A DNA stretch of 64,000 nucleotides. It comes from Felixounavirus NRG857CP1. This document shows, in pieces, positions 12,741 through 62,471 of the stretch. The notes below the pieces were generated by a model that saw nothing but the letters and a program-made list of their open reading frames with translations, was not told the DNA's origin and searched no databases. Position numbers and translations under genes: made by a program. Location of the stretch: sequence record OZ035806.1; one strand, written 5' to 3'. How positions within the stretch are numbered: position 1 is the stretch's first letter; every line of letters begins with the position of its first letter.

Positions 12741-14718
12741 AGGTCGTAAATTGAAAGAGGCTGGTCAGTTTGTTGGTCATTGCGCATGTCCACGTTGTGG
12801 TTCATCAGATGCTGGTTCAATCTATCACCATGACGATGATTCTTATTCAATGACTTGCTTTAGTTGTAACAAAGGTTTCCCAGAGTGGGATTTTGATAAA
12901 GGACAAATCGTGAGCACTTATTCTACTGGTTCAGACAATAAAAACCGTACTTTCCGTGGAATGGATTTAGACGATGTGAAAGAAAACCTTGAAGCAATGG
13001 ACTTAAAGGACAGGAAGATTCCTGCAAAAGTTCTTGAGCGTTTGGGTATCAAGGTTGACATTGACAGTGACGGTGAAATTGACGCACATTTCTACCCAAC
13101 TTACAAACGTAATGAAGATGGTAAGCTAGAACATGTTGGCTACCGTGTTCGTCACCGTTATCCCGAAGACCATCCAAAAGAACACCTACGTGGTAAGCTA
13201 AAAGATTTCTCAGGTGGTGTTGGAGACATTAAAGGTGAACTGGCAATGTTCGGTTCATGGATTGCTCCAGAAGGTGGTAACCGTCTATTCATCTGGGAAG
13301 GTGAGATGGAATGTGCGACAGCAATCTATATGACTTCTCTTGCGATTAAGGACAAGTCTCGTCGTAAGAATTACTGTCACGTATCTGTCCCATCAGGTGC
13401 AAACATTAAGTCTATCAAAGACAACTATCAGTACATCACATCATTTGATGAGATTTACTTGTGCTTTGATAACGATGAAGCAGGTGCTAAAGCTACCAAA
13501 GAGGCTGCTGGTATCCTACCTATTGAGAAGGTTCGTTTATTCCAGTATCCAGAGGGTGTAAAAGACCTTAACGAATGGTGGACAAAGTTCTATAAAGAGA
13601 AAGATACAGTTCTTGAAGGGTTTAAGCAGCGTATATACAATGCACCCCGTTACTGTCCTGCTGGTATCAAGAACTTCGCAGATGGTTTTGAGGCAATGAA
13701 GAATCGTGGTCAGATTCCATTGATTCCTTTCCCAGAATCATTCGGAGATTTGAACAGACTGACTTATGGTGGTTATGGACTAGGTGAGATTACAACTCTG
13801 GCAGCACCATCTTCAGTAGGTAAGTCAGCTTACACTCGTGAGATGATTTATTCAGCTTGGAAGGAAACCGATTACAATATTGGTGTAATTCCTGTAGAAG
13901 ATACCTACGAAGAGTTGATGGAGATGCTCTGTGCAATCCACCTGAGTAAGCAGATTTCCGAGATTCCTTATGACGAACGTGATTGGGATGAATTAAAGGA
14001 AGCACACGCAGAACTATCTAAAGGTCGTCGTATCCATATCGTTGACCATCAAGGGGCAATTGACCAAGATAACCTGCTGGAGTTTGTTGACTATCTTGTT
14101 AATAGTTTAGACTGTAAGATTATTATTCTTGACCCTATTACGTTGGCTCTGTCACGTTCTGATACGGATGAAGAGGAAGTATTGTCTGAACTATTGCGTC
14201 GTTGCAAACGCTACCAGTATGCACAGGTAAACGTCTGTCACGTTCGTAAGAGTGCAGGTGGTCAGAAGGCTAACTCTGAAGGTGGGGATATCTCTGAAGA
14301 GGATATTAAAGGCTCTGGTGCGTATTTCCAGATTTCTATGAACAACATTCTGTTAATGCGTAACAAGGTTGACCCAGACCCTGTTAAGAAAAACTTGACA
14401 AAAATCAAGCTAACTAAATGTCGCCGTCACGGTAAGTCAACGGGTATTGCTGGTCATACTTGGTACAATCCAGATACAGGACGCCTCATCAAAGCATCTG
14501 GTTGCGGAGTTGACATTGATGGTGCAGCAGAAAATATTCGCCAACAGTTTGGTATTGGTGAAGCTGAAGACCATTACGATGACTCTTTACCACATTATGA
14601 GGATGAAGTGTTTGACCGTGAGACTGGTGAAGTTTATACTGAAGAGCATCGTCAAAGCTCAACGATTCCACCTGTATTAAGTGAGGATGCAGATGACTGC
14701 CCATTCGAAACTGAGTGA
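12727..14718 (+). CDS. bifunctional DNA primase/helicase (T7 gp4-like)
   Basis: N-terminal zinc ribbon CPRCGS..CFSCNKG; TOPRIM-like EGEMEC..FDNDEAG; DnaB-type Walker A APSSVGKS. Confidence 0.85.
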   Translation: MLMSKGRKLKEAGQFVGHCACPRCGSSDAGSIYHHDDDSYSMTCFSCNKGFPEWDFDKGQIVSTYSTGSDNKNRTFRGMDLDDVKENLEAMDLKDRKIPAKVLERLGIKVDIDSDGEIDAHFYPTYKRNEDGKLEHVGYRVRHRYPEDHPKEHLRGKLKDFSGGVGDIKGELAMFGSWIAPEGGNRLFIWEGEMECATAIYMTSLAIKDKSRRKNYCHVSVPSGANIKSIKDNYQYITSFDEIYLCFDNDEAGAKATKEAAGILPIEKVRLFQYPEGVKDLNEWWTKFYKEKDTVLEGFKQRIYNAPRYCPAGIKNFADGFEAMKNRGQIPLIPFPESFGDLNRLTYGGYGLGEITTLAAPSSVGKSAYTREMIYSAWKETDYNIGVIPVEDTYEELMEMLCAIHLSKQISEIPYDERDWDELKEAHAELSKGRRIHIVDHQGAIDQDNLLEFVDYLVNSLDCKIIILDPITLALSRSDTDEEEVLSELLRRCKRYQYAQVNVCHVRKSAGGQKANSEGGDISEEDIKGSGAYFQISMNNILLMRNKVDPDPVKKNLTKIKLTKCRRHGKSTGIAGHTWYNPDTGRLIKASGCGVDIDGAAENIRQQFGIGEAEDHYDDSLPHYEDEVFDRETGEVYTEEHRQSSTIPPVLSEDADDCPFETE

Positions 14719-14970
14719 TAGTTATAAAAGAGAGGGGTTCACACCCTTCTTTGAAGAAAAAAGTTTAAATAAATTTCAGGAAGAGTGTTTGACAAAGATT
14801 GATAGGTTCTATAGAATGCTCCTTATGAAATGCGATGGGGAAGTTGAGATAAAAGAAGATTTCCACCAAAGCATGATTACAGTCATCATTGCGCTACCTC
14901 AGCATAATATTAGCTGGCTGTTTATAATTAAAGAAAATGTGTTTGAATATCAAGTATATCGGAGAATATC

Positions 14971-15120
14971 ATGAAACACTCTAAAGCATTTGAAAAAGTT
15001 TTTGGGGATTCCTTAAAAGCCACTGCTGGAAAACCAGCAAAATACTATGAAGAGAAACGTGTAAGAACTGGAAAAACTGCACGTAAAGCAGCTTCTAAAG
15101 ATAAGCACAACTTCCAGTAA
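14971..15120 (+). CDS. small basic protein (50 aa, below track cutoff)
   Basis: ATG preceded by GGAGAA RBS; not in ORF track because under 60 aa. Confidence 0.35.
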   Translation: MKHSKAFEKVFGDSLKATAGKPAKYYEEKRVRTGKTARKAASKDKHNFQ

Positions 15121-15192
15121 TTAGTATTTGACAATAGAGTATCAACAAATTAGAATTGGTACTCTTCATAAATTGAGATAGAGGTTTAAATA

Positions 15193-16050
15193 ATGTCTAA
15201 AGTTGTTAAAATGAAAGCTCCGGTAGAGAAGTACAACGGTACTGAACGTCAAACTCTGCGTTACCTGCTGAAAGATGTCTGGTTTTATTACCTGAACACT
15301 TCACCACGTCCGGGAAAAGGTAAGTCTATTGATAAGAAATTCCCAGGAAAAGATTGTAACTACAGTGTGTCAATTCTGGCAGAAGATGGTAACAAGCTGT
15401 TTAAAGAGTTTACTAAGTCTAAGAAAAACCCAGAAGGTTGGGATAAAGTTACTACTGAAGCAGTTGATGCAGATGACTTCGAAGAGAAGTTTGGTTGTAA
15501 ACCACCTTTTGAAGCAGACACTTACTACATCTTGAAAGTAAGTCGTGCAGCAGCTTATAAAGATGGTGCTGTATGGACAGCTAAACAGTCATTCCCTGTA
15601 ATGCTGATTGAAGAAGTAAATGGTAAGCGTGTAGCTGTTAAGCAGCCGATGAAGAAAATCAAAGCTCAAGCATCTGATAAACATGAAGATGACAAGAACT
15701 ATGATGTAATCCATCCAGATATTGCAGTTGGTAACGGTTCTTTTGGTAGTGTGATTCTTTCTACTCACTTCTACACTTTTGAGAACAATGTTCTGACAAA
15801 ACCTATTCAGGAACAGTTTATCATTGATACTCTTGTACCTTACACTGGTGGTAACGGTGCTAATGGCGAGCCTGAACTGGATGAAGATGAACTGGCTATG
15901 CTTGGTCTTGATGGTGTTGAAGATAACGGTGAAATCACTGAAGAAGACGCAACAGACCATAAACCTTCGAATGCTTCTGATGATGGTGATGATGAAGATT
16001 TACCAGACCCAGATGACGAAGAAGATGAAGACTTCGATACAGAAGACTAA
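15193..16050 (+). CDS. single-stranded DNA-binding protein (T7 gp2.5-like)
   Basis: 285 aa with highly acidic C-terminal tail DDGDDEDLPDPDDEEDEDFDTED; located between helicase and exonuclease. Confidence 0.6.
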   Translation: MSKVVKMKAPVEKYNGTERQTLRYLLKDVWFYYLNTSPRPGKGKSIDKKFPGKDCNYSVSILAEDGNKLFKEFTKSKKNPEGWDKVTTEAVDADDFEEKFGCKPPFEADTYYILKVSRAAAYKDGAVWTAKQSFPVMLIEEVNGKRVAVKQPMKKIKAQASDKHEDDKNYDVIHPDIAVGNGSFGSVILSTHFYTFENNVLTKPIQEQFIIDTLVPYTGGNGANGEPELDEDELAMLGLDGVEDNGEITEEDATDHKPSNASDDGDDEDLPDPDDEEDEDFDTED

Positions 16051-16112
16051 TCTCTAAAAGTTACTTTAAAGCCCCATACTAAGTACAGGGCTTTTTCATA
16101 TGGAGAGCCATA

Positions 16113-17159
16113 ATGGAGAAGTACACATTAACAAAACTTCCCGATTCAGTTACACATGTTTTTATTGACTCTGACAGTATTGCCTATAAAGGTGCTTGTG
16201 TAGTTGAGAAAGCAAAATATAAATATGTCAATAAACTCACAGCAGAAGAATCTGAACCATTTGATAATGCGAAAGATGCTGCAAGATGGTTAGCAGACCA
16301 GAGAATCCTTGTGGAAGAACTTGGCCTGACATTTGATGAAGATGAATGGGAAAGACAGACTTGGAAAGAAGCTAAGAGTGAAAAAGAAGCTATCATGGCT
16401 ACTCAACAGGTTCTTCAGGAATGGCTTAAGGTTGTTGGTAAAGAGAGAACTTGGGTAGGTTACTTAACAGAGAAAGGTGTGCATAAACATAAAGACATTA
16501 AAGGTCTTGAGCACCAATATCAAGGTAACCGTAAAGATGCTGTCACACCAACACACTTAGTTGCTTGTCGTGAATATCTTCTGTCAAGACCAGAGTTCAA
16601 ACTCTTAAGGGGAGGCTTCGAAGCCGATTCAATCGTAATTGCTAAAGCTGAAAAGATGGGTAAGAAAGCTGCTCTTATGAGTATTGACAAAGACCTTCGA
16701 CAAGCTGAAGGGACTTATTGTATTGATATGACTTATGAAAAATCACCACTAATTTTTATCGCTGATAATAATGTTGGTAATATCTGGGATTGCCCTATCA
16801 AATCAAAACCAAAAGCTGCAAAAACAGTTGGTGTAGGTTTTAAATTCTTGTGTTATCAGGCTGTTGCTGGAGATAATGCAGACAACTACTTCGGCCTAAA
16901 AGGTGCTGGTAAAGTAGCTGTGATGAATGCTTTAGAGGGTAAAGAGACCTACAAAGAGTGTCTTGACGCTATCTATGAACTTTATGCTAAAAAAGACTCT
17001 TATACCTATGTGTCATGGGATGGACAGACCGTTACAAAGACGCCGTTAGAGTTAATGGAACAGCATTTCTTCCTAGCTTATCAAGAGCGAAATAAATCAG
17101 ATATTTTTTCATTTGAAAAGTATGGTTGGACTCCAAATGTTGACTCAGCAGATACTTAA
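16113..17159 (+). CDS. 5'-3' exonuclease (T7 gp6-like)
   Basis: motifs VFIDSDSIAY, SIDKDL and AVAGDNADNYFGLKGAG parallel T7 gp6 DGDW, SCDKDF, GDITDGYSGIAG. Confidence 0.6.
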   Translation: MEKYTLTKLPDSVTHVFIDSDSIAYKGACVVEKAKYKYVNKLTAEESEPFDNAKDAARWLADQRILVEELGLTFDEDEWERQTWKEAKSEKEAIMATQQVLQEWLKVVGKERTWVGYLTEKGVHKHKDIKGLEHQYQGNRKDAVTPTHLVACREYLLSRPEFKLLRGGFEADSIVIAKAEKMGKKAALMSIDKDLRQAEGTYCIDMTYEKSPLIFIADNNVGNIWDCPIKSKPKAAKTVGVGFKFLCYQAVAGDNADNYFGLKGAGKVAVMNALEGKETYKECLDAIYELYAKKDSYTYVSWDGQTVTKTPLELMEQHFFLAYQERNKSDIFSFEKYGWTPNVDSADT

Positions 17160-17637
17160 AGAATATCTACACTATGACCCCGAAACAGGGGTCTTTACGT
17201 GGATAAAGAAATCAGCTAAAAGAACAGTTATAGGTTCCATTGCAGGTACACCACATAAGCGAGGTTATATTAGGATAAAAATTAAAAGAAAACCCTATAT
17301 GGCTCATGATTTAGCAATCCTGTACACAGACGGTTTCCTACCTAACAGAGTAGACCATCGAAATGGTATTACTAATGATAATCGGAGATTAAATCTAAGG
17401 GTTTGCACACAAGCTGAAAACTCTTGGAATAGAAGAACACACTCCAACAACACATCTGGAGTTAAGGGTGTATCTTTCTATAAGGCTAACCAAAAATGGA
17501 AGGCCAGAGTTATGACACACGGAGTATCTCACTTTCTGGGGTATTTTGACAGTATTGAAGATGCCAAAGATGCAGTCACAAAGAAAAGAGAAGAACTACA
17601 TAAAGAGTTTTCAAATCACGGAGAAGCTTATGAATGA
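17113..17637 (+). CDS. HNH homing endonuclease with AP2-like domain
   Basis: RVDHRNGITNDNRRLNLRVCTQAEN; paralog of 7022..7573; overlaps exonuclease 3' end. Confidence 0.75.
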   Translation: MKSMVGLQMLTQQILKEYLHYDPETGVFTWIKKSAKRTVIGSIAGTPHKRGYIRIKIKRKPYMAHDLAILYTDGFLPNRVDHRNGITNDNRRLNLRVCTQAENSWNRRTHSNNTSGVKGVSFYKANQKWKARVMTHGVSHFLGYFDSIEDAKDAVTKKREELHKEFSNHGEAYE

Positions 17638-18131
17638 AGATTAAAGGATTTGGCAATTGCCCTACCTACGGTCATTGGGTATCTTTATGTGGGGAAGTTG
17701 ACCCCACTAAACATTTTGGCTTTGTCTATTTAGTGCACTGTAAGAAGACTGGACAATATTATATCGGAAAGAAACAGTTTAACAGTGTGACCAAAAGAAA
17801 AGTTGCTGGGAAGACTCGGAAGAAGATAGTCACTAAGGAAAGTGATTGGATGACTTATGAGACTTCTTCTGAGTATATTAAAAAAGATATTGAGAGTTTT
17901 GGAAAAGAATTTTTTGACTTTTACATTATTCAGACCTACTACACAAAAGGTGGCCTAGTCTATGGTGAAGCAAACCTTCAACATAAATTCGATGTAATGA
18001 CAAAAAGGATTGACTCTAAGCTCAGACTCTTCTACAATGCCAATATTGCAGCAATTAAGTTTATCACTAAAGAAACTTATGAAGATGCTGAAAAAAGAAT
18101 CCATAAGGTAATGAAAGCAAATTGTGCTTGA
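17634..18131 (+). CDS. GIY-YIG-like nuclease (possible homing endonuclease)
   Basis: FVYLVHCKKTGQYYIGKK resembles the GIY..YIG motif. Confidence 0.4.
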   Translation: MKIKGFGNCPTYGHWVSLCGEVDPTKHFGFVYLVHCKKTGQYYIGKKQFNSVTKRKVAGKTRKKIVTKESDWMTYETSSEYIKKDIESFGKEFFDFYIIQTYYTKGGLVYGEANLQHKFDVMTKRIDSKLRLFYNANIAAIKFITKETYEDAEKRIHKVMKANCA

Positions 18132-18137
18132 TAACTA

Positions 18138-18401
18138 TTGAGAGAGAATAAAATGTTTAACAAAAGTAAAGCTGTGAGTCATGTAGCAAAAGTTGACAGC
18201 AAGATTGAAGAACTTGAGCGCATCCTTGCAAATGCTAGAGAGTCAATAATTAAAGAAGTTGAAGCTGTTGAGTCTCAAATGCAGCACCTAATGCTTAAAC
18301 GTCAAGAGCTACGTGAACATCTAGAATATATTGAAACACGAGAGCTAAAGGTTAACAAATATTTTAAGGAGTCCGAATGTTTAACTCAAGAGAATCAGTA
18401 A
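18138..18401 (+). CDS. hypothetical coiled-coil protein
   Basis: 87 aa ORF with AGAGAATAAA RBS region. Confidence 0.35.
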   Translation: MRENKMFNKSKAVSHVAKVDSKIEELERILANARESIIKEVEAVESQMQHLMLKRQELREHLEYIETRELKVNKYFKESECLTQENQ

Positions 18402-19132
18402 AAAACTGGAACCTTCGTTGTGGAAACACTCAAAAGCAACCTTACAGTGATGAGTATTGGGAATCTTTAAAATCTCAATCTCTGTGTATGCTTGAAGAAG
18501 CAAAAGAGCTTGTAAAAGCAATTGAAGAGAAAGACCCCATTGAGACACTGGATGCTCAGGCAGATTTGCAATATGTTCTTGACGGTTTGATTTATCTGTC
18601 ACAACATGACCATAACGGTGCTATGAAAGCTGTTTGCCATAATAATGACCTGAAGTACACAGATAACTATGAAGAAGCTTTAAAACGTCTTGCAGACATT
18701 GAAAAGCGTACTGGTCAAGAGTGTATTATCAGAATGTCAGTAGTTGATGGTAAAGAGTGGTATGCTATTGTTCGTGCAGCCGATGGGAAGATTATGAAGC
18801 AATCAAATCTCCCTAAAGTACAGCTTGGTGAATACATTGTAGAACTTGAAAGCCAAGAACTTTTTGTGGTAGTATCTGAGACATGCGTTATTTGCAAAGG
18901 TATTGTAGGTAGCTTAAAGGATTTGGGTGTAGATGGTTTTGTAGAAGTTAATCCAATTACCTCTAAAGCAGATAAAGACTTCTGTAAAGAGAACGGACTA
19001 TGGATTGCAGATATTGTCTACTATGATGGTGAGCAGTTCCATGTAACCTCATACCCGAAACTGAATTATGATGCTAATAACCTGAAGTGCTGGTTAAAAG
19101 GGGTTGGTTATAATGGATTCACAGAACATTAA
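18377..19132 (+). CDS. hypothetical protein
   Basis: 251 aa ORF. Confidence 0.4.
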   Translation: MFNSRESVKNWNLRCGNTQKQPYSDEYWESLKSQSLCMLEEAKELVKAIEEKDPIETLDAQADLQYVLDGLIYLSQHDHNGAMKAVCHNNDLKYTDNYEEALKRLADIEKRTGQECIIRMSVVDGKEWYAIVRAADGKIMKQSNLPKVQLGEYIVELESQELFVVVSETCVICKGIVGSLKDLGVDGFVEVNPITSKADKDFCKENGLWIADIVYYDGEQFHVTSYPKLNYDANNLKCWLKGVGYNGFTEH

Positions 19133-19436
19133 TAAAGAGGGTGTGGCTCAGAAGAGCCACTTCTCAAACTACAATATTTCTATGACGGTGTTTATGAATG
19201 ACCCGTTACTAGAAAAATATGGTGAGACTCCAGATACACTTCTGGACAATGAACAAGTTTTAAAAGCAGTCCTGTACAAATACGGTATTGATATTGAGAA
19301 AGAGTATTCTTTTGAAATCTGCCAACACAGAAACACTTTTGGTAAAGTTGTGATGGCTCCACTCTTTATGGGCGTAGAAAGGACTGACTATGGCTGGTTG
19401 TATCTGAAAAGAAACTTGGAGAAATACCGTGTCTAA
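19104..19436 (+). CDS. hypothetical protein
   Basis: 110 aa ORF. Confidence 0.35.
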   Translation: MVIMDSQNINKEGVAQKSHFSNYNISMTVFMNDPLLEKYGETPDTLLDNEQVLKAVLYKYGIDIEKEYSFEICQHRNTFGKVVMAPLFMGVERTDYGWLYLKRNLEKYRV

Positions 19437-19764
19437 AGCAAAAAAGCTATCTTATGATGACATTATCTCAGGTGCTAAGTTAGGTGTTGATAGTATCGGA
19501 CAAGATGTTAAGCACGGAGACACAGTCATGTACTGTGATGACCGAAGAGGTAGAAGTGCAATCTTGTTTGGAAGAATTGTTTGCAAGATGAGAGGTAATT
19601 ACGTTGTTGCAGACATGGATGTGAACGTTACACAAAAACTTGAAACAATTATGGATGCTAGCGCACCATCATGGTTCCTAAATTGTATGCACACCTCGTC
19701 AGTCACAAAAGTAAGTGATAAGTTTTACGATATGTGGCAGAATGAGCAAATTTTCAAGATTTAA
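19429..19764 (+). CDS. hypothetical protein
   Basis: 111 aa ORF. Confidence 0.35.
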   Translation: MSKAKKLSYDDIISGAKLGVDSIGQDVKHGDTVMYCDDRRGRSAILFGRIVCKMRGNYVVADMDVNVTQKLETIMDASAPSWFLNCMHTSSVTKVSDKFYDMWQNEQIFKI

Positions 19765-41606: not shown

Positions 41607-41696
41607 AAAGTACTTTACATGGGGCTTATAGTTCGATAAAGTAAGCCCCAGATAAAGAGCTTTACCAAATTAACCCTTAAACTAGGAGATTCAAAA
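41607..41696 (+). promoter_or_regulatory. class II promoter cassette with inverted repeat spanning the -10 region
   Basis: TTTACA-17-TAAAGT embedded in GGGGCTTA..TAAGCCCC, then AGATAAAGAGCTTTACC and TAAACTAGGAGATTCAAAAATG. Confidence 0.55.
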
Positions 41697-42077
41697 ATGG
41701 CATATCGTGCACCTAAATTCATCAACAAAGACAACTTTCGCAACGCACTGGAGAAGTCACTTGATGAAAATTTTAAAGGCAACATTATCGTTGTTCACGC
41801 ATTCAATTTTAAGTATGATGTAAACGGGAATAGAATCAACCATTACACGGCAACCATGTTAGATGGCACACTATCAAGTGAAAAAGCTGTACTGAATGCA
41901 CTTGCTGGACGTGGTAAAAACCTGATAAAATGCGATAAGAGACGTTATCAGGGTGGCGCATATGGTTATGATGATGCTATTTATCATCTTGAAAATATGG
42001 GCTATCAAGTAGAAAAAGCTGGAGCATCACAAATCATCGGCAGTGACGGCTATGTGACAATTTTCAAAATTAACTGA
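41697..42077 (+). CDS. small early-type protein
   Basis: 126 aa; preceded by class II cassette. Confidence 0.45.
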   Translation: MAYRAPKFINKDNFRNALEKSLDENFKGNIIVVHAFNFKYDVNGNRINHYTATMLDGTLSSEKAVLNALAGRGKNLIKCDKRRYQGGAYGYDDAIYHLENMGYQVEKAGASQIIGSDGYVTIFKIN

Positions 42078-42079
42078 TA

Positions 42080-42172
42080 AAGTACTTTACAAGGGGCTTA
42101 AAAGTTGGTATCTTAAGCCCCAGATAAAGAGCTTTACCACTAAATCAAGTCCTTAAACTAGGAGATTCAAAA
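42080..42172 (+). promoter_or_regulatory. class II promoter cassette
   Basis: TTTACA..GGGGCTTAAAAGTTGGTATCTTAAGCCCC..AGATAAAGAGCTTTACC..AGGAGATTCAAAAATG. Confidence 0.55.
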
Positions 42173-42685
42173 ATGAAAACTGTAGACGCTACCTTTGAAG
42201 TTGTAAAAGAAAAATTTTCCATCATTTACGAAGCTGTTAATTGCTACGAAGCAAGCCATAACCTTGATAATTGGGAATTTACAGATGACCATCAAGGCGG
42301 TGTGACTGTTAAAAATCCTAACTATCAGCATAATGCATTTAAATATGCAATCCCTTTGCATTACAGCCTTAAACAGCTTTCTAGTGACTATGCAAAACAA
42401 GGCCGGGAAAATCCATCAAAAGAGGCTTACGCAAGCTTACAGAAAGAACTAGAAAGAGATTTAGAGGCTTCAGAGTACAACCTTGCCGCGAAAGTTGTGG
42501 ATGCAAACGGTAACACGGTTTTAGAAAGTTTTTATCTTGGTTATGCTTTCGATTGGTGCTATCGTGACGGCGATGATTTAGAGGATAGACTAAAAGAAGA
42601 GGTGAACAATTCAGACGCAGAATCTGAAGTATTAGAACGTTTGGAATCACTAAAAGATTCAGTGATGAATATCTTTAAGAACTAA
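42173..42685 (+). CDS. early-type acidic protein
   Basis: 170 aa; preceded by class II cassette. Confidence 0.45.
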   Translation: MKTVDATFEVVKEKFSIIYEAVNCYEASHNLDNWEFTDDHQGGVTVKNPNYQHNAFKYAIPLHYSLKQLSSDYAKQGRENPSKEAYASLQKELERDLEASEYNLAAKVVDANGNTVLESFYLGYAFDWCYRDGDDLEDRLKEEVNNSDAESEVLERLESLKDSVMNIFKN

Positions 42686-42687
42686 AT

Positions 42688-42777
42688 AGATTTCTTTACA
42701 CGGGGTTATCAAGCTGGTAGGATAGCCCCAGATAAAGAGATTTATCAAATAAAGTCCTTAAACTAGGAGATTCTAAA
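42688..42777 (+). promoter_or_regulatory. class II promoter cassette (diverged copy)
   Basis: TTTACACGGGGTTATC..GGATAGCCCCAGATAAAGAGATTTATC..AGGAGATTCTAAAATG. Confidence 0.5.
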
Positions 42778-43074
42778 ATGAAATTATCAAATCAAGTGCG
42801 TGAAAATCTAAGCAAATTACTCAACAAAATTGATTTCATTGAAACATCAAGGAATAGTCATGATGTTATGGAATGGTTACACGGCAAAATAAAAGGCCGT
42901 CGTGTAGTGATTTGCTTATGGAACAGTTGCAGGGAGTATAAAAAACCTGTATTGCAAGTTAATATCTATGATGATACTTTTAAAAGTCCTGTAAAGTCTG
43001 AAAGTGATTTACTAGATTCTTATGAGATAACTGTAAATGGCAAAGTGTCACGTAAAGAGGAAGCACTATGTTAA
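42778..43074 (+). CDS. small early-type protein
   Basis: 98 aa; preceded by class II cassette. Confidence 0.45.
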   Translation: MKLSNQVRENLSKLLNKIDFIETSRNSHDVMEWLHGKIKGRRVVICLWNSCREYKKPVLQVNIYDDTFKSPVKSESDLLDSYEITVNGKVSRKEEALC

Positions 43075-43400
43075 TGATGGGTATCACTGCAATCATTGCT
43101 ATTATGGCGCTATATAAGGCGTACAGCGCCTACAATCTGGCAAGTAAGGCAATCACGCAACAGGTCAATAATAGCCTTGTAATGAGTTTTCTGGAGCGTT
43201 TAAGTGATGAACAAATAAAACGGTTAGAAATGAGCTTCAGATTTCAATCAAAAACTTATCAAATCAGCGACATTTTCAAAGATAATTTTCAGCTTGTCGA
43301 TGATTATAACTCTCTGATAAATGCTTTAAATATCAGCGACTTAAAAGACTATTACACTATAATTGTCCAAGAACTGAACAAACGAAAAAATTTCTCTTGA
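43068..43400 (+). CDS. small protein with N-terminal hydrophobic helix
   Basis: 110 aa; MLMMGITAIIAIMALY; overlaps upstream gene by 7 nt. Confidence 0.4.
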   Translation: MLMMGITAIIAIMALYKAYSAYNLASKAITQQVNNSLVMSFLERLSDEQIKRLEMSFRFQSKTYQISDIFKDNFQLVDDYNSLINALNISDLKDYYTIIVQELNKRKNFS

Positions 43401-43404
43401 TTTT

Positions 43405-43490
43405 AGTTTTAAAAACAAGTAAATTACTAATCAACGGGGAGGGAATGACCTTCCCCACTAAGTAAAGTCCTTAAACTAGGAGATTCAAAA
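43405..43490 (+). promoter_or_regulatory. class I promoter-hairpin-RBS cassette
   Basis: GTAAATTACTAATCAACGGGGAGGGAATGACCTTCCCCACTAAGTAAA..AGGAGATTCAAAAATG. Confidence 0.55.
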
Positions 43491-43763
43491 ATGTACACTA
43501 CTAACAACGGTCGCACCTTAAACGTAACCCTACGCCACTATGTGAACGGTGTAATGCACTTCGAGGATTTACAAGCTGAGCAACATATCTTAGATTGGCA
43601 AGTAGCAGGACTCCAAAAAACTGCTACGGGATACGGTAAAAAGATTCCAACCAGTTGGAAAGTACACTACGAAGGACGTTTGCGCAGAATTTATCAGGAT
43701 GTGCAAAGCAATAGCGCATCGAGTTACATTATAGTAAAAGGCAAAAAACTGCATTTAATGTAA
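43491..43763 (+). CDS. small early-type protein
   Basis: 90 aa; preceded by class I cassette. Confidence 0.45.
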   Translation: MYTTNNGRTLNVTLRHYVNGVMHFEDLQAEQHILDWQVAGLQKTATGYGKKIPTSWKVHYEGRLRRIYQDVQSNSASSYIIVKGKKLHLM

Positions 43764-43849
43764 AGTACTTTACATGGGGCTTGGAAGTTGATATCTTAAG
43801 CCCCAGATAAAGAGCTTTACCACTCAATCCTAAATTGGAGAACTTAAAA
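43764..43849 (+). promoter_or_regulatory. class II promoter cassette
   Basis: TTTACATGGGGCTTGGAAGTTGATATCTTAAGCCCCAGATAAAGAGCTTTACC. Confidence 0.55.
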
Positions 43850-44254
43850 ATGGCTATTAATAACCGTGAATTATCAATGTTAAAAGCACGTTTGACCGTT
43901 AATCGAATCAACATTATGACATCATCAGCGCCTGATGAGACATTGCACAACATTATCGGAAAGATTCAAAGCGTTATTTTAGACGTTGAAAACGTAAAAA
44001 GTTCATTGGCTGACGTTGCAGCAGGTATCACGCTAGACGGTGCGCAATATGAAATGTCCGACATGTTAGGCAAATCAAAGGTAATGAATAAAGAGCTTGA
44101 TTTAAAGATGTTCCGATTTGCTGTTAAAGTATGGCTATCCGTCGAGTATGACGCTAATTTTGCAATCGCTGATTTCTTTGCCACTTGGTTACAACGTAAT
44201 TTGACAAATCACGATTTTCGTGATGTCTGTGATGCAATTTATGCAGAACTCTAA
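43850..44254 (+). CDS. small early-type protein
   Basis: start set at Met after GGAGAACTTAAAA RBS (track ORF begins 43835). Confidence 0.45.
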   Translation: MAINNRELSMLKARLTVNRINIMTSSAPDETLHNIIGKIQSVILDVENVKSSLADVAAGITLDGAQYEMSDMLGKSKVMNKELDLKMFRFAVKVWLSVEYDANFAIADFFATWLQRNLTNHDFRDVCDAIYAEL

Positions 44255-44262
44255 AAAATTTT

Positions 44263-44355
44263 GTTGACACTGGTTTTTAGATAGATTAAATTACACATCA
44301 ACGGGGAGGGAATGACCTTCCCCACTAAATAAAGTCCTAAACTGGAGATTCTAAA
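44263..44355 (+). promoter_or_regulatory. class I promoter-hairpin-RBS cassette
   Basis: TTGACA-17-TAAATT, then CAACGGGGAGGGAATGACCTTCCCCACTAAATAAA..GGAGATTCTAAAATG. Confidence 0.6.
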
Positions 44356-44559
44356 ATGGCTATTATTAACGGTTTAACCATTGAAACTACACACATCAAA
44401 GATATCAAAGTTGGCGATATAGTCCTTTCCCACGGCGTAGAAAAAACTGTCACTGCAAAGGATATCAAAGAGGATTCTTTCATGGGTAGGACTCTTTTCG
44501 GTGATTCTTATTGCTTAGGTTACCTTGCAGTTTTAAAAGTTGTCAAAAATAACAAATAA
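44356..44559 (+). CDS. small early-type protein
   Basis: 67 aa; preceded by class I cassette. Confidence 0.45.
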   Translation: MAIINGLTIETTHIKDIKVGDIVLSHGVEKTVTAKDIKEDSFMGRTLFGDSYCLGYLAVLKVVKNNK

Positions 44560-44561
44560 AG

Positions 44562-44643
44562 TACTTTACAAGGGGCTTATAAGTCTGTAAAGTAAGCCCC
44601 AGATAAAGAGCTTTACACAATCCTTAAACTAGGAGATTAAAAA
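44562..44643 (+). promoter_or_regulatory. class II promoter cassette
   Basis: TTTACAAGGGGCTTATAAGTCTGTAAAGTAAGCCCCAGATAAAGAGCTTTAC..AGGAGATTAAAAAATG. Confidence 0.55.
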
Positions 44644-45186
44644 ATGAAATGCTATCACGGAACTACTCAAGAAAATTTCCTCAACCTGATTAATAACGGT
44701 GATAAACCATCAGGCGCATGGAATTGTTCGGATATGGACGGCAATTTTTACGTGTATCCAGAAAATAAAATCTATGGCGACGATGAGGAAGAAATAGCAT
44801 CAGAGGGCATTCAGCAAGCTCTAGGCAATGCCACTATCACCGCAGCTTTTCAGATGAAGACTCAAAATATTGTTATCTTAGAACTCGATATTCCAGAGGA
44901 TGAGCTAAATGATGATTATTCTTGTGATAATATGTCGAGTGTAGCAAGTTTTACAGAGTACTTTGATGTAAATTGGATTAAAAAGGTCTATACAACAGAG
45001 TTTAACGCTATGTATTCACCTTTTTGTCTTCCTTCATTGGATAACCCAAATTTAAACTATCTTGATGAGTCTCTGGAGCTTCTTGCTAAAAGTGTTCAAC
45101 AGTCGGACAGTATTCAGGTTTTTTGTGACATCATGGATACACTGACAGGAAACATTGCAGAAGAGGATTTAAAGAGCTTTTTCTAA
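44644..45186 (+). CDS. early-type acidic protein
   Basis: 180 aa; preceded by class II cassette; followed by hairpin AGCCCC..GGGGCT. Confidence 0.45.
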   Translation: MKCYHGTTQENFLNLINNGDKPSGAWNCSDMDGNFYVYPENKIYGDDEEEIASEGIQQALGNATITAAFQMKTQNIVILELDIPEDELNDDYSCDNMSSVASFTEYFDVNWIKKVYTTEFNAMYSPFCLPSLDNPNLNYLDESLELLAKSVQQSDSIQVFCDIMDTLTGNIAEEDLKSFF

Positions 45187-45212
45187 AAACCTATGCAATC
45201 ACCTTATAAACA

Positions 45213-45238
45213 CTAATCAGCCCCTTGTAGGGGCTTTT
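45213..45238 (+). terminator. terminator-like hairpin
   Basis: CAGCCCC-TTGTA-GGGGCTTTT. Confidence 0.45.
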
Positions 45239-45252
45239 AGAGGGCTTAAATC

Positions 45253-45486
45253 ATGCTTACAACCATTTACCTCATCCTTTCCATCTGTAATGGTCATTCA
45301 TGTGATTTTAAAGGGCTTGAAGAGTTTACAGGAAGTAAAGAAAATGCTATTCAAGTTTGCCAGATAGCAAGACAAGACTATCCCGCTAGTGATGATATAC
45401 AATGTTACTTTAAGACAGAAGATGAAGACGGTATCTATTTTGACAGCGTAGATGGTCAGTATGAAATTATCATTGAAAAAGACTAG
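45253..45486 (+). CDS. small protein with signal-like N-terminus
   Basis: 77 aa; MLTTIYLILSICNGHSC. Confidence 0.35.
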   Translation: MLTTIYLILSICNGHSCDFKGLEEFTGSKENAIQVCQIARQDYPASDDIQCYFKTEDEDGIYFDSVDGQYEIIIEKD

Positions 45487-45489
45487 ACA

Positions 45490-45577
45490 AGCCTGATAAA
45501 AATCTGTAAATTGTCAATCAACGGGGAGGGAATGACCTTCCCCACTAAGTACAATCCTTAAACTAGGAGATTCAAAA
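45490..45577 (+). promoter_or_regulatory. class I promoter-hairpin-RBS cassette
   Basis: GTAAATTGTCAATCAACGGGGAGGGAATGACCTTCCCCACTAAGTACAA..AGGAGATTCAAAAATG. Confidence 0.55.
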
Positions 45578-45919
45578 ATGGCTTATGTAACCGTAATTAC
45601 CGATAAAGAAAATTCATCTTGGTCAACTCAAGTAAGTGATAAGATGTCACCTATGCAGTGCCTAAAATACTTTGAACAGTGGAACAAAGGCGAGGACACA
45701 AGCCCCTTTCAAGTGATGCAGATTATCCATGTAGATAACGAAGGGAATAAAACGGTTTTAAATAGTGAGTACTACGCAAGCCGTTTTGAAACGAGAAGTA
45801 AAACAATGAAGCTTTTACGTGAATCCGGTTACTCCCATATCGCCGCGCTAATCTGGGATGACCTGCTAAAAAACCAACGTATCAGCTATGTAAAACCTGA
45901 AAAAATATTCATCAGTTAA
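45578..45919 (+). CDS. small early-type protein
   Basis: 113 aa; preceded by class I cassette. Confidence 0.45.
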   Translation: MAYVTVITDKENSSWSTQVSDKMSPMQCLKYFEQWNKGEDTSPFQVMQIIHVDNEGNKTVLNSEYYASRFETRSKTMKLLRESGYSHIAALIWDDLLKNQRISYVKPEKIFIS

Positions 45920-46059
45920 TCAATAACTTACAAAAAACTTTTAAAAAAAATGTTGACAATACCCCTTGACATTGGTAACTTTGTTCGAGGGGGTTTATCT
46001 AAAAGGGATTCACTTAAAAGATTCTTTATAGATAAGCTCAAAAAATTACTTGCAATCAG

Positions 46060-46142
46060 CTATCAAAACAAGTAAATTACTAATCAACGGGGAGGGAATG
46101 ACCTTCCCCACTAAGTAAAATCCTTAAACTAGGAGAGTCAAA
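46060..46142 (+). promoter_or_regulatory. class I promoter-hairpin-RBS cassette
   Basis: AAGTAAATTACTAATCAACGGGGAGGGAATGACCTTCCCCACTAAGTAAAA..AGGAGAGTCAAAATG. Confidence 0.55.
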
Positions 46143-46673
46143 ATGAACAAGTTTAAAGCTATCAACTTCATTCGTTCAAATGCTGTAATGTCTAAGCCTG
46201 TAAAAGATACATATGAATTTCGTTGTAATGGGGTACACTTTGCAACCATCACTAAGTCAGAAAACGGGGCTTATTATGTACATCGTCGTAATGTTGCAAC
46301 CGTTGTAGTCTCTCACTTTATGCAAGCTGTAGCGGAATTATTACCGTTATTCTTAGAGATTTACTTAGATGAGTGTAAAAACGTTCACAACCACGTTAAA
46401 AACCTTTTAAACGGTTATAAAATGGCTTATGAACGTTCTATCAAGTCACTAAACAAGTTTTACAATGCACCTGCAAATACTGTTTCAATGGCTTATGATG
46501 TAAACGGTGAGTTAGTTAGTCTCTTTAAAGTGGAAGAAATTAAACTGTATAATCTACGTCCTAGTGGTTACTCTAAGACTCTTGGTGAAGGTTTAACGTT
46601 CAATATCAAGAACTTAGAAAAAACTTTAAAAGATATTGAAAAAGATATTGACGAGACACTTAAAAGTCTGTAA
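46143..46673 (+). CDS. early-type protein
   Basis: 176 aa; preceded by class I cassette. Confidence 0.45.
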   Translation: MNKFKAINFIRSNAVMSKPVKDTYEFRCNGVHFATITKSENGAYYVHRRNVATVVVSHFMQAVAELLPLFLEIYLDECKNVHNHVKNLLNGYKMAYERSIKSLNKFYNAPANTVSMAYDVNGELVSLFKVEEIKLYNLRPSGYSKTLGEGLTFNIKNLEKTLKDIEKDIDETLKSL

Positions 46674-46741
46674 ATTGTCAATCAACGGGGAGGGAATGAC
46701 CTTCCCCACTAAATAAAACCCTTAAACTAGGAGATTCAAAA
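46655..46741 (+). promoter_or_regulatory. class I promoter-hairpin-RBS cassette
   Basis: GTAAATTGTCAATCAACGGGGAGGGAATGACCTTCCCCACTAAATAAAA..AGGAGATTCAAAAATG. Confidence 0.55.
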
Positions 46742-46990
46742 ATGGCAACTATCCGCGCTACTGTTAACGAGTTCGGTTTTTCTTCTCTGGATGTTAAATT
46801 TGACATTGCAGGCACTGATAACGCCTTTGAAATGGTGAAATGTCTTATCAGTCAGACCATCAAAGATTATAATCCTTCGGATGAGTTCTGGGAGGAAACA
46901 AAACAAGAAGTTCTCAAGGATGGTTATACTTATCACTATTGGGGAGAAAAAATCGTCTCCCTGTACTACAACAAACAAGATTATAACTAA
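46742..46990 (+). CDS. small early-type protein
   Basis: 82 aa; preceded by class I cassette; last gene of plus-strand block. Confidence 0.45.
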   Translation: MATIRATVNEFGFSSLDVKFDIAGTDNAFEMVKCLISQTIKDYNPSDEFWEETKQEVLKDGYTYHYWGEKIVSLYYNKQDYN

Positions 46991-47029
46991 TCGACGCAGC
47001 GGGGCTATTTAGCCCCAGATACCTGAACA

Positions 47030-47055
47030 GCCCCTTAAAATGGGGCTTTTTTACG
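47030..47055 (+). terminator. intrinsic terminator closing the plus-strand block
   Basis: CAGCCCC-TTAAAAT-GGGGCTTTTTT. Confidence 0.6.
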
Positions 47056-47059
47056 TCTA

Positions 47060-48660
47060 TGTAATAGCCTCTATTCAATCCTTTTCCTTTCCTTTCCAGA
47101 ATCTATCCCACTGATTCAATAGAATCTTATCAGACCTTAAAAGCAATAACTCTATAGTCTACTCTATAACCTCTTATCAAATCAACTTAAATAAAAGCCA
47201 ATAACCCCAGAAAGGGGATGGCCCATTTAAACGCTCTATAAAGCTCTATAACAGCCTTATCAACCTAACTTAAGGGATTGCATTAACTCACCCTTAAAAA
47301 CCCTTTATAAAGCTTCTCAGAGCCTTAAAAGAATCTTATAAGGGTGTAAGCTTTATCATCTCATTAGTATTCTTGTGAATAACTAAACAACCCCTTGATA
47401 GTCACTAAAAAGTATGTTATAGGGGGCTTTAAAGTTACTTTGAAGTAGCTTAAAAGTTACGTAAAAGAGGTTATAAAGTTACGTAAATGCTAGCCCCCTT
47501 AACATTTTCTTAACAATTTCTTAACAAACCCTACATAGTTATGCTTTTAAGGCACTTGTTAGCAACTTGTTAGCCCCTTGTTAAATCTCTGTTAAGACCA
47601 TGTAAAAGCCTTGTAAGAGTCTTTGACATAGCCTTTAAAGCTCCTGTAAAGCTCTATAAAGAGGTGTTTGTACAGTTGGGGGGTAAATACTAGGAAGAGG
47701 CTTAAAAGGGCTTACAAGGAGCTATAGAGAGCTTTTAAGAGGTATGTTTAGAGAATCACTAAGAAAGAGAGGGAACGATAAGAAAAGAGTAGTGACCATG
47801 TTAATAGCTTGTTAAAAAGATTAAACACTTGTTAAAAACTTGTTAATTATCTTAACAAAATAACTCTTAAAAATTAACTTGTTAGCTCTTGTTAGTCATC
47901 TGTTAAGATTCTGTAAAGCCCATGTATCAACTGTTAAGAAACTGTTAAGCCCTTGTTAGCTCTGTTAAGAATCTGTTAAGACCTTTGAAGAGTTGTTAAG
48001 AAGATGTTAGAACTGTTGAGAGATTGTTAATGATATTTTAAAATTTTGCAAAGTACTTGTAAGGGAGCTGTTAAGGGCTACCAAGCAGATATACATCTTC
48101 TACAGATATTTTTGAGTTCCTTCAAAGACCCTAAAAAAATGACTTGATATTCCTATTTTATAAAAATTTTAAAATTCTGAATAATTACCTATACAGTCTT
48201 TTAAAAATACAGGCATAAACAGGCTTATAAGATACCTTGTTAGTACCGTGTTAGACCTTGTGAGATAAGGTCTGTAAAGATATTCCTGTTAAGTTTGTTA
48301 AAACAGTCTATATAGAGGCTTAGTAATACCTAGTGAACACCTATAGAGGGTAACATAGCTGACATAATGGGTTACTGTTAAGTAACACAGATAACCTAGA
48401 GATTAAGAGGTGTATAGGGGGCTTCTAAGAGGGTATAGAGAGATGGTTAAGGTGATTGTATAGGCTGTTAAGAAGGCTTGTTAGAAGAGTGTTTAGAAGG
48501 GCTATACAGAGGGGCTATTAAGACCACTAGATAGTTACTAAGATACTATATAGTACTATATAACTATATATAGAGAGTAAGCTTAAGAAGGTTGTTAAGA
48601 AGGGTAGATATTTTATTCACATATGATGGTGACCCAGAGGTTGGGACAACCGATGAAATT
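47060..48660. repeat. 1.6-kb non-coding, repeat-dense region between convergent gene blocks
   Basis: no ORF of 60 aa or more; dozens of (C)TTGTTA(A/G)(G/C) boxes, densest about 47500..48020 with roughly 10-11 bp spacing; also CTCTATA and AAGTTAC repeat families. Confidence 0.6.
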
Positions 48661-48664
48661 TTAT

Positions 48665-48690
48665 AAAAATTAAAAAGCCCCCAATTAAGG
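48665..48690 (-). terminator. terminator-like hairpin for the minus-strand block
   Basis: minus-strand reading GCCTCC..GGGGGC followed by T-run. Confidence 0.35.
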
Positions 48691-48706
48691 AGGCTCTTAA
48701 GATATT

Positions 48707-49312
48707 TTAAATCAGTGTTTCCAGAACTGTCTTCAGTGATGACTTGGTTGTCTGATAAAAATGAGTAAATCCATTGTTGTTATCGAATACCTGCATCATG
48801 ATATCATCTCCCTTGATTGGGTACACTCGGATATCATAGTGGAATCCATTAAAGATAGCAGAGCCATTACAGAATGAACTAAAGTCATCAACTGAGATGT
48901 ACTCTTCGTGACCTGTGATTTTTATACAGACACCTTTACTCGGTCTCTTAGGGTTGATATCTTCCATGATAGACATGCTCTGTCCACCAAGAGATACCAT
49001 AGTGACCACTTTACGGTTCTTCTGTTTAAAGTACATCTTAACTTTCTGTAAAGTGTCTTCATAGAACGGATAAGACCTTTCTACAAAGATTCCTTCAAGT
49101 GGCTCTTTACCATTTTCAACTTCTCTGTTATGCCGTACTGCAAAGATAATTTGTTGGAACCAGTCAAGATTTTCTTCGGAGAGTGCTTCCCGAATATCAT
49201 TCCAGTCAAGGACTAGGTAGTTGCCTTCAACATCTTTTAAGTTATCTTTTTCCATATCTATCACACCATTATCGTAAAACTTGGTAGTCTGGTACTGCAA
49301 ACTTGTTGTCAT
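48707..49312 (-). CDS. hypothetical protein
   Basis: 201 aa ORF. Confidence 0.4.
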   Translation of the reverse strand: MTTSLQYQTTKFYDNGVIDMEKDNLKDVEGNYLVLDWNDIREALSEENLDWFQQIIFAVRHNREVENGKEPLEGIFVERSYPFYEDTLQKVKMYFKQKNRKVVTMVSLGGQSMSIMEDINPKRPSKGVCIKITGHEEYISVDDFSSFCNGSAIFNGFHYDIRVYPIKGDDIMMQVFDNNNGFTHFYQTTKSSLKTVLETLI

Positions 49313-61671: not shown

Positions 61672-62225
61672 GATACTTAAAATATGCTTCATGGATTTTC
61701 TTAGCTTTGCTAGAACCACTTGCAGCAATACTAGCAGTTATCTTAGCACCTTTCGTAGTTCCATTCTACAGTGAGAAGAAAGGACATCTACCTTTTGGAT
61801 TCAGATGGATGGAGACCTATGACAACCCAATTGATGGTGATGAAGGTCACGTTAAAAGATGGGCTAATATTAGATGGATTGGTAAACTAGGTGTCTACAT
61901 GCAAAGAGTTGGATGGCTCTGGAGAAACAAAGCTTATAACTTCTCTTACCATGTGTTAGGAAGAGATGTAAAAGATGTTACTAAGTGGAAAGGTAATATC
62001 AACGTAAGTTCTAACCCTGAAGATAATCAGACTGGTTATCTCCTAATGTGGAACAGGAATGCTTGGGGATTATTCGCTTTTATCCCATCAATTAAAATCT
62101 TTGGTAAACAATTTTACTGGAGAATTTATATTGGATGGAAACTAAAAAGCGTTGTCCCAGAAGAAAGAGCATTCTCAAGGGAAAGAGTTATGTTGGCATT
62201 CTTTATTCATCCACTAAGAAAGTAA
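61668..62225 (+). CDS. hypothetical membrane-associated protein in tRNA cluster
   Basis: 185 aa; N-terminal hydrophobic helices; Trp-rich. Confidence 0.4.
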   Translation: MRYLKYASWIFLALLEPLAAILAVILAPFVVPFYSEKKGHLPFGFRWMETYDNPIDGDEGHVKRWANIRWIGKLGVYMQRVGWLWRNKAYNFSYHVLGRDVKDVTKWKGNINVSSNPEDNQTGYLLMWNRNAWGLFAFIPSIKIFGKQFYWRIYIGWKLKSVVPEERAFSRERVMLAFFIHPLRK

Positions 62226-62233
62226 AGATTTAA

Positions 62234-62309
62234 AGGGGATTAGTTTACAAGGTTAAAACCTCGGTCTTTGAAATCGAAGAAGTTGGTTCAATTCCAACAT
62301 CCCCCGCCA
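62234..62309 (+). tRNA. tRNA-Gln (anticodon TTG)
   Basis: anticodon arm TCGGT-CTTTGAA-ATCGA, D-arm GTTT..AAAC, T-loop GTTGGTTCAATTCCAAC, CCA encoded. Confidence 0.65.
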
Positions 62310-62311
62310 AT

Positions 62312-62390
62312 GCTCCATTACTCCAATTGGCAGAGAGGCCAGACTTAAAATCTGTGTTATGTATCGGTTCGAATCCGATATGGAGTACCA
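62312..62390 (+). tRNA. tRNA-Leu (anticodon TAA), short variable arm
   Basis: acceptor GCTCCAT/ATGGAGT, anticodon loop CTTAAAA, T-loop ATCGGTTCGAATCCGAT, A73. Confidence 0.55.
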
Positions 62391-62395
62391 AATTT

Positions 62396-62471
62396 AGCGG
62401 TATAGCATAACTGGCAATGCAGCAGTCTCTGAAGCTGTCTTATTAAGGTTCAAATCCTTATGCCGCTGCCA
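62396..62471 (+). tRNA. tRNA-Gln (anticodon CTG)
   Basis: acceptor AGCGGTA/TGCCGCT, D-arm GCAT..ATGC, anticodon arm GCAGT-CTCTGAA-GCTGT, T-loop TAAGGTTCAAATCCTTA. Confidence 0.6.

Follow-up and report, generated by a model that had tools for sequence, protein, structure and literature searches.

Short direct terminal repeats (DTRs) accompanied by arrays of short repeats are known from the T7-like phages; in T7 itself the terminal repeat is reportedly flanked by the short-repeat arrays SRL and SRR, a description that goes back to Dunn and Studier in 1983. Phased repeats also occur in the small-terminase recognition sites of lambda (the R sites of cosB) and of SPP1 (the pacL and pacR boxes). 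The long terminal repeat of T5 contains a gene-free injection-stop region rich in repeats, direct as well as inverted, and in DnaA-like boxes; unlike the DTR of the Felix O1-like phages, the T5 repeat is about 10 kb long and carries pre-early genes. For the Felix O1-like phages, the DTR can already be found in GenBank annotations and three papers, which give its length and position alone, and the literature searched holds no description of phased TGTTAAG boxes, of their polarity, of an inverted boundary motif or of conservation across genera.

The locus was studied in a 64,000-nucleotide stretch of Felixounavirus NRG857CP1 (OZ035806.1), referred to from here on as the window. Positions 46991–48706, bounded by the stop of an 82-aa ORF at 46990 (+ strand) and the stop of a 201-aa ORF at 48707 (− strand), contain no complete ORF of 60 aa or more, the largest internal ORF being 33 aa. 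The original prediction, made from the sequence of the window, had stated that no such ORF lies between two convergent terminators, and this is borne out by the ORF list together with the two terminator-like hairpins at the borders (Table 1). The six ORFs flanking the gap match only PHROGs without an assigned function and have no Pfam match. Megablast with the 1.6-kb sequence as query returned 253 phage records, nearly all from Felixounavirus, the Felix O1-like myophages of Escherichia, Salmonella and Shigella; at least 80% of the query was covered in 173 of these records, and the best match was 98% identical. A more sensitive search added Mooglevirus, at 72–77% identity, and a short match of 85 bp in Erwinia phages of the genus Kolesnikvirus.

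Table 1. Sequence features of the gene-free interval and their positions in the window.
Feature	Position	Strand	Remarks
Terminator-like hairpin with T-run	47029..47047	+	Closes rightward early-gene operon
Left unique flank of the putative concatemer junction	47048..47492		Unique sequence adjoining the right DTR copy of virion DNA on its inner side; CTCTATA at 47150, 47162, 47234 and 47244; also holds CTTAAAAG/CTTATCA-type units
22-bp tandem repeat, about 2.9 copies, GCTTTAAAGTTACGTAAAAGA	47426..47487	+	Found by TRF; adjoins left DTR boundary
DTR, single collapsed copy	47493..48082		Boundaries from PhageTerm-derived records
Left-edge boxes, three inverted CTTAACA	47498..47526	−	11-bp period; adjoin left DTR edge
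Four direct boxes, CTTGTTAG/CTGTTAAG	47554..47596	+	11-bp period
Four direct TGTTAA and one inverted copy	47799..47857	+	Direct at 47799, 47810, 47830 and 47841; inverted at 47851
Main array, 15 units	47880..48031	+	11 exact TGTTA[AG], 4 degenerate; TRF periods 11/31/62
TTTTGCAAAG motif	48044..48053	+	About 30 bp inside right DTR edge
Last box, fused to right DTR boundary (TGTTAAGGGCTACC)	48069..48082	+	Invariant in 22 genomes
Right unique flank	48083..48672		Unique sequence adjoining the left DTR copy of virion DNA on its inner side; direct TGTTAR at 48238, 48249, 48287, 48296, 48376, 48466, 48479 and 48593; TATAGAG at 48311, 48342, 48434 and 48569
GCAGATATACATC	48085..48097	+	Directly outside right boundary; genus-invariant save T/C at the penultimate base
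Terminator-like hairpin with T-run	48673..48698	−	Closes leftward operon

By homology to the mapped ends of relatives, the interval is the genome-terminus region, and the same homology gives the position and boundaries of its DTR. The records of phages Pr103Blw and D4 carry exact 581-bp repeats at both ends, with the same boundaries in each (start GCCCCCTTAACA, end TGTTAAGGGCTACC), and these repeats map to 47493–48082 of the window. In the Pr103Blw record (MW481326) they are annotated as “short direct terminal repeat” at 1–581 and 87841–88421, in agreement with the two 581-bp terminal repeats found with PhageTerm (PMC8303462); the D4 termini come from PhageTerm in the hands of a different group (PMC11737134). 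A 613-bp DTR was found by PhageTerm for Ro111lw, also Felix O1-like (PMC6454146), and the class given to these relatives by PhageTerm is “DTR, T7-like short” (PMC6454146, PMC8303462). UAB_69 (OL656108) is annotated with a 618-bp “DTR” in the homologous gap, which corresponds to 47491–48084 of the window, i.e. 2 bp from the PhageTerm boundary at each edge, and is 100% identical to positions 15150–15767 of UAB_Phi87. At least nine further GenBank records begin or finish inside the region. The length of the DTR is 570–660 bp across 22 aligned genomes and 581–618 bp in the mapped or annotated relatives.

The presence of the same sequence at both virion ends thus follows by homology from Pr103Blw and D4, along with a 444-bp repeat in Erwinia phage M7. 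That the ends are fixed and non-permuted is seen in the two independent PhageTerm analyses, in the UAB_69 annotation within 2 bp of them, and in Bal31-sensitive fragments of UAB_Phi87. Self-comparison shows one repeat copy per unit, with a single internal copy in the window and in most GenBank records. Termini lying elsewhere had been named in the original prediction as evidence that would count against it; on checking, the mapped ends of close relatives fall inside the region.

One record places the ends differently. That of UAB_Phi87 (JN225449) has an exact 542-bp duplication at its ends, which maps to 61893–62434 of the window, in the tRNA cluster. Termini in this cluster, 13 kb away, were rejected on the DTR annotations of Pr103Blw and UAB_69 and on restriction arithmetic with SpeI and Bal31. 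The published UAB_Phi87 genome is 87,669 bp including a 608-bp DTR, with Bal31-sensitive SpeI fragments of 4322 and 2819 bp (PMC4837284). Subtracting 608 from 87,669 leaves 87,061 bp, which is the length of the record minus 542, while the sum of the two fragments minus the DTR requires a circular fragment of 6533 bp. Circular SpeI fragments of the UAB_Phi87 sequence measure 3321, 8559, 6568, 40349, 11425 and 16839 bp, of which only the 6568-bp fragment (13014–19582) fits, and it includes the homologous gap (14.6–16.2 kb). The fit of the individual fragments is approximate, the UAB_69 boundaries predicting 4433 and 2753 bp; ends at the record ends would predict 1134 and about 16,250 bp in place of the published 4322 and 2819. 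Given the 87,061-bp unit and the SpeI data, we attribute the 542-bp duplication in JN225449 to an assembly artefact and place the physical ends of UAB_Phi87 in the homologous gap. UAB_69 comes from the laboratory that studied UAB_Phi87.

The most conspicuous elements of the region are the TGTTA(A/G) boxes. Between 47499 and 48598 (1.1 kb), TGTTA[AG] occurs 28 times on the + strand and four times inverted (YTAACA), where about two copies are expected. The whole 64-kb window holds 135 copies, compared with 127 ± 11 in dinucleotide shuffles, so that the enrichment (about 14-fold) is purely local. If up to one mismatch to TGTTAAG is allowed and both strands are searched, the DTR has 44 boxes per kb, the flanks 19–20 and the remainder of the window 6.8. 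In total there are about 32 boxes over more than 1 kb, about 24 of them within the DTR. CTGTTAAG, with 10 copies, and CTTGTTAG, with 7, are the most frequent forms, and the actual consensus is C(T)TGTTA(A/G)(G). The dozens of boxes originally claimed are therefore present under this looser consensus but not under the stricter one then given, since the octamer TTGTTAAG was found only twice; the inverted copies claimed with them are the four YTAACA. Two further repeat families from the same source, CTCTATA and AAGTTAC, also hold up by count, with five copies of CTCTATA against 0.05 expected and three of AAGTTAC, which are part of the 22-bp tandem repeat.

Units of the main array follow one another at 9, 10 or 11 bp (mean 10.36 bp), and their phase coherence is R=0.92 at a period of 10.3–10.4 bp but only 0.18 at 11.0 bp. 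The proposal of one box per helical turn near 47880–48030 thus survives exact counting as a local property. A long-range helical phase across all boxes of the DTR was rejected: R reaches 0.81 at 10.4 bp, but this is not significant against the run-shift null (0.26), in which each array is kept intact and moved as a whole. Helical phasing is established only within the local array, not between arrays. The boxes are also polar, with inverted copies starting 5 bp inside the left edge (GCCCCCTTAACA...) and nearly all copies direct from 47545 on. CTCTATA and its complement TATAGAG form a dyad, all five copies of the former being at or before 47652 and all five of the latter at or after 47723, and the layout in Moogle is the same.

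The two edges of the DTR are marked by motifs that hardly vary. At the left edge, GTTACGTAAAT(G/A)CTA(G/A)CCCC is all but constant across 22 genomes, with single substitutions in three, and is kept in Mooglevirus; at the right edge, TGTTAAGGGCTACCAAGCAGATATACA is essentially invariant in 22 non-redundant genomes. A few bases further inside the edge motifs, the sequence varies among the 22 genomes, and the 11-bp inverted box unit at the left edge is present in 2 to 5 copies. The right end TGTTAAGGGCTACC and the left edge GCTAGCCCCCTTAACA together make a terminal inverted repeat, both edges bearing the same outward-facing sequence, TGTTAAGGG(GG)CTA(C/G)C. As a consequence of this inverted repeat, both virion ends look alike from outside. 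Just outside the edges the invariant elements differ: TTACGTAA occurs twice on the left, as a palindrome within the 22-bp tandem repeat (47457–47464 and 47479–47486), and GCAGATATACA occurs on the right. GCAGATATACATC is a candidate cleavage or recognition element. The TTTTGCAAAG motif is largely kept, as TT(T/C)TGCAAAG in Felixounavirus, exactly in Moogle, only as CTGCAAAG in Sf13, and in Erwinia phage M7 as TTTTGCAAAGG, about 30 bp inside the right edge.

Each of the 22 genomes has 18–22 direct and 2–6 inverted boxes per DTR. In Mooglevirus (Moogle and Sf13) the boundaries are preserved almost letter for letter, and the 570-bp equivalent of the DTR holds 17–18 direct boxes; 17 boxes align column for column between the window and the two Mooglevirus phages. 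When the DTR of the window is compared with Mooglevirus, 88.5% of box bases are conserved, against 69.8% of the other bases (circular-shift p 0.03, for boxes versus spacers over the DTR plus the right flank). Boxes in the right flank are not better kept than their surroundings (58% versus 70%) in the same comparison.

Further away, the record of Erwinia phage M7 (Kolesnikvirus, HQ728263) begins and ends with an exact 444-bp repeat in the syntenic gap. Joined, its two ends make up about 1.9 kb without genes between two convergent operons, which is the same architecture. Only about 85 bp of this gap can be aligned to the window, yet TGTTAAGA occurs there 19 times. TTAACA copies are found in the left part of the M7 DTR and direct arrays in the right part and the right flank, and GTAGATATACA stands directly outside the right edge, where the window has GCAGATATACA. 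A search of IMG/VR with the pattern TGTTAAGN4TGTTAAG gave, among the matches listed, mostly single chance matches and a few real arrays. In two unrelated metagenomic phage contigs (L103 and L131), related arrays adjoin a Terminase_6 TerL, and a third (L112) has an array with TGTTAAGGGCTGCCC and no blastn match to known phages. The arrays in these three contigs are a hint that the system may be more widespread.

Local phasing, fusion of boxes to the edges, selective conservation and persistence in three genera lead us to infer that the boxes are packaging-protein sites. We think there is a good chance that the region is the concatemer junction of the Felix O1-like phages, with the DTR at its centre and the boxes as putative sites for a packaging protein. 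Most likely, the boxes act in cis in terminase recognition and in the processing of the DTR, as in concatemer junctions of the T7 type, and TGTTAAG is probably the binding place of a DNA-packaging recognition protein. In such a scheme, unit-length DNA would be packaged with a short, exact and non-permuted DTR, the terminase cutting at both of its edges. The phased boxes would be bound by an oligomeric recognition protein, either one that acts as a small terminase or a different factor involved in packaging or end processing. With one face of the DNA coated or wrapped by this protein, the TerL nuclease would be brought into place to cut twice, at sites about 590 bp from each other, and the repeat would be duplicated during packaging, as has been proposed for T7.

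Clustered, phased motifs beside a cleavage site, as in pac and cos sites, are found here. A pac site was one of the options of the original prediction, and its packaging and terminus part is upheld by the mapped ends of relatives; the small terminase that goes with such a site could not be identified with Pfam or PHROGs, either among the six flanking ORFs or in the 66-aa ORF upstream of TerL, which belongs to a PHROG without an assigned function and has no Pfam match. The Felix O1 genome paper reports TerL only (PMC3185647). TerL is of the Terminase_6N/6C type and is encoded about 16 kb from the region, a distance that speaks against the packaging reading, whereas many pac and cos sites adjoin the terminase genes. 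Two proteins were considered as readers of the boxes, and neither makes a confident candidate: the 66-aa ORF, which has no family of known function, and an HTH_3 protein, neither of which is detectable by tblastn in the Erwinia phages that share the boxes. The HTH_3 protein (gene 35 of Bas63) has negative fitness scores when disrupted, according to the per-gene scores for Bas63 in the PhageMaP supplement. It is conceivable, although we would rather doubt it at present, that the boxes and TGTTAAGGG(GG)CTA(C/G)C make up a new terminus-recognition system, common to at least three genera of Ounavirinae and served by a non-canonical, small-terminase-like putative reader.

The main rival keeps the DTR as described and gives the boxes a role other than packaging, namely end protection or tethering, control of stepwise ejection, a role put forward for the injection-stop region of T5, or recombination or replication restart at the DTR leading to concatemers. 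Such a role would suit the extent of the boxes, which run through the entire DTR and for about 500 bp outside it rather than marking the cut sites alone, as well as the second family, CTCTATA/TATAGAG, which forms a large dyad around the DTR; the lack of a TerS identifiable by Pfam or PHROGs points the same way, as does the range of 2 to 5 left-edge units with no apparent harm. The first and last boxes, however, are fused to the two invariant boundary motifs, so that at least those copies are tied to the cutting sites, and we consider a purely non-packaging role unlikely.

Origin-binding sites, another option of the original prediction, are a very improbable reading; the arrays would then be iterons, the stretch at about 48150–48185 an AT-rich unwinding element, and 47374–47382 and 48613–48621 DnaA boxes. 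An origin would account for direct repeats in helical phase, for the AT-rich stretch and for two perfect TTATNCACA matches (in inverted orientation, by eye), where about 0.05–0.1 would be expected in 1.6 kb, but these DnaA-like boxes are lost in Moogle and Sf13 and the six flanking ORFs include no initiator-like gene by Pfam or PHROGs. Nor is there an origin-type skew switch: the region coincides with the maximum of cumulative GC skew and with a point of convergent transcription, and the skew minimum falls near 10 kb together with a divergent junction, next to the genes for the polymerase and the primase-helicase. The units, moreover, are 7–8 bp long at a spacing of 10–11 bp, not iterons of 17–22 bp, and the mapped ends already account for the region. 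We give almost no credence to the two other options of that prediction, one or more non-coding RNAs and a partition centromere, which a long gene-free interval conserved within the genus might otherwise suggest; 11-bp direct repeats are also a feature of R1 parC-type centromeres, a likeness that favours the latter. Rfam gave no match at E<0.1 (the best matches scored 26 bits with a gathering score of 55, and 21.6 bits with a gathering score of 79), promoter-like sites are not in excess (13 versus 11.4 in shuffles), transcription coming in from either side ends at the borders, and length polymorphism in 11-bp steps does not suit a structured RNA. A centromere is at odds with a lytic phage, and scanning the six flanking ORFs revealed no ParA-, ParM-, ParB- or ParR-like protein, i.e. 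neither an adjacent ATPase or actin gene nor one for a centromere-binding protein.

The Felix O1-like phages are widely used in typing of Salmonella and E. coli, in biocontrol and in therapy, and neither a small terminase nor a packaging signal has been defined for them so far. Many of the deposited genomes have been opened arbitrarily, and at least one (JN225449) has a misleading terminal duplication. With the ends located in the gap, the invariant boundary motifs provide a rule by which Felix O1-like genomes can be oriented and annotated, while the approximately 24 phased TGTTA(A/G) boxes of the DTR offer a cis-element with which to fish out the recognition protein. The DTR locus also comprises sites to be avoided or exploited when engineering these phages.

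Among known systems, the concatemer junctions of T7 and T3 belong to genomes that, like the present one, are unit-length and non-permuted and carry a repeat of a few hundred bp at either end. In both cases concatemers and collapsed assemblies hold that repeat once per unit, short motifs form arrays within and beside it, and cuts at its two edges are followed by its duplication. The Felix O1-like phages differ in being myoviruses of 85–89 kb with a repeat of 570–660 bp, compared with 160–230 bp in T7 and T3, and their repeat is placed between two convergent operons, not upstream of early promoters as in T7. The TGTTAAG sequence is unrelated to the T7 box, the boxes fill the repeat itself and their polarity switches, and TerL is of the Terminase_6 type (T4-like), with no recognisable TerS equivalent to T7 gp18.

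With lambda cosB and the SPP1 pac region, the common trait is the arrangement of several short motifs on one face of the helix beside a nuclease cut site, and by analogy such same-face motifs could wrap around an oligomeric recognition protein. Unlike those systems, the region has about 24 boxes in the DTR and about 32 in total over more than 1 kb, two cutting sites instead of one, no TerS identifiable with Pfam or PHROGs, and a terminase gene about 16 kb away. The injection-stop region of T5 is similar in being a gene-free stretch on the kilobase scale that is tied to a terminal repeat; we know of no two-step ejection in Felix O1-like phages. The closest counterparts are the DTRs annotated in Pr103Blw, UAB_69, UAB_Phi87, Ro111lw and M7, which have the same locus, homologous sequence and the same boundaries as the region described here.

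The direct terminal repeat (DTR) varies in length from 569 to 658 bp in the alignment of 22 Felixounavirus genomes, because an 11-bp unit at its left edge (CTTAACAnTTT, 47498-47530 in the window) is present in 2 to 5 copies. These copy-number differences are a slippage-type polymorphism, with steps of whole helical turns. At both edges, the PhageTerm-derived boundaries of Pr103Blw and D4 lie 2 bp inward of the UAB_69 annotation (window 47491-47493 and 48082-48084), and alignment of the record edges of Erwinia phage M7 agrees with the UAB_69 convention. The offset could reflect short overhangs lost during library end-repair, or simply differing conventions. To the right of the DTR, the alignment shows a 24-bp insertion, ATGAGGTAGATTCTACCGAATCAA, immediately 3' of the GCAGATATACATC element in two of the 22 genomes; the same insertion follows this element in the Mooglevirus Moogle (L031:2446-2470). 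It is not found in the window, where its site would be just right of 48097.

The GenBank record of UAB_Phi87 (JN225449) carries at its ends an exact 542-bp duplication (1-542 = 87062-87603) that maps to window 61893-62434, in the tRNA cluster. The duplication is distinct from the DTR of 608 bp found experimentally for this phage; it looks like a leftover assembly overlap and may mislead those who equate record ends with physical ends.

The unique sequence on either side of the DTR contains one perfect match to the DnaA-box consensus (see table); neither match is kept in Moogle or Sf13. These phages have few proteins that can be recognised as DNA-binding; one is a 99-aa HTH_3 “transcriptional regulator” (UAB_Phi87, L005:9047-9346), the window homologue of which should lie near 3.1-3.4 kb on the minus strand. 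The protein is conserved across Felixounavirus and Mooglevirus, and was not detected by tblastn in Erwinia phages. In Bas63, disruption of gene 35, which encodes it, gives clearly negative fitness scores (about -1.2 in host S17).

Dense TGTTAAG/TTAACA arrays are also found in IMG/VR phage contigs, among the matches listed, although these loci were retrieved with the TGTTAAG motif itself as query, so that selection bias is complete. In L112, from a 169-kb source contig, eight TTAACA copies are followed by five of TGTTAAG, terminating in TGTTAAGGGCTGCCC, which is similar to the right DTR edge of the window; blastn of L112 alone gave no match among known phages. In L103, a Terminase_6-type TerL lies 4.4 kb downstream of the array.

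Positions of DnaA-box matches, contig arrays and intergenic repeats
Feature	Sequence	Coordinates	Remark
DnaA box TTATNCACA	window	47374-47382; 48613-48621	inverted relative orientation
TGTTAAG/TTAACA array	L112	7180-7560	
TGTTAAG/TTAACA array	L035	6107-6400	
TGTTAAG/TTAACA array	L103	595-790	
TGTTAAG/TTAACA array	L131	4179-4520	
Early-gene intergenic repeats	window	41607-41705; 42064-42178; 43386-43497; 43747-43859; 44287-44363; 44543-44643; 45506-45583; 46065-46143; 46660-46753	examples

Further repeats lie within window 41607-46753, where intergenic segments of ~65-115 bp recur many times upstream of small early genes. They are 88-97% identical to several UAB_Phi87 intergenic sites, and are probably repeated promoter/terminator modules. 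In this they would resemble the repeats of 57 bp and 39 bp that the Felix O1 genome paper (PMC3185647) describes.
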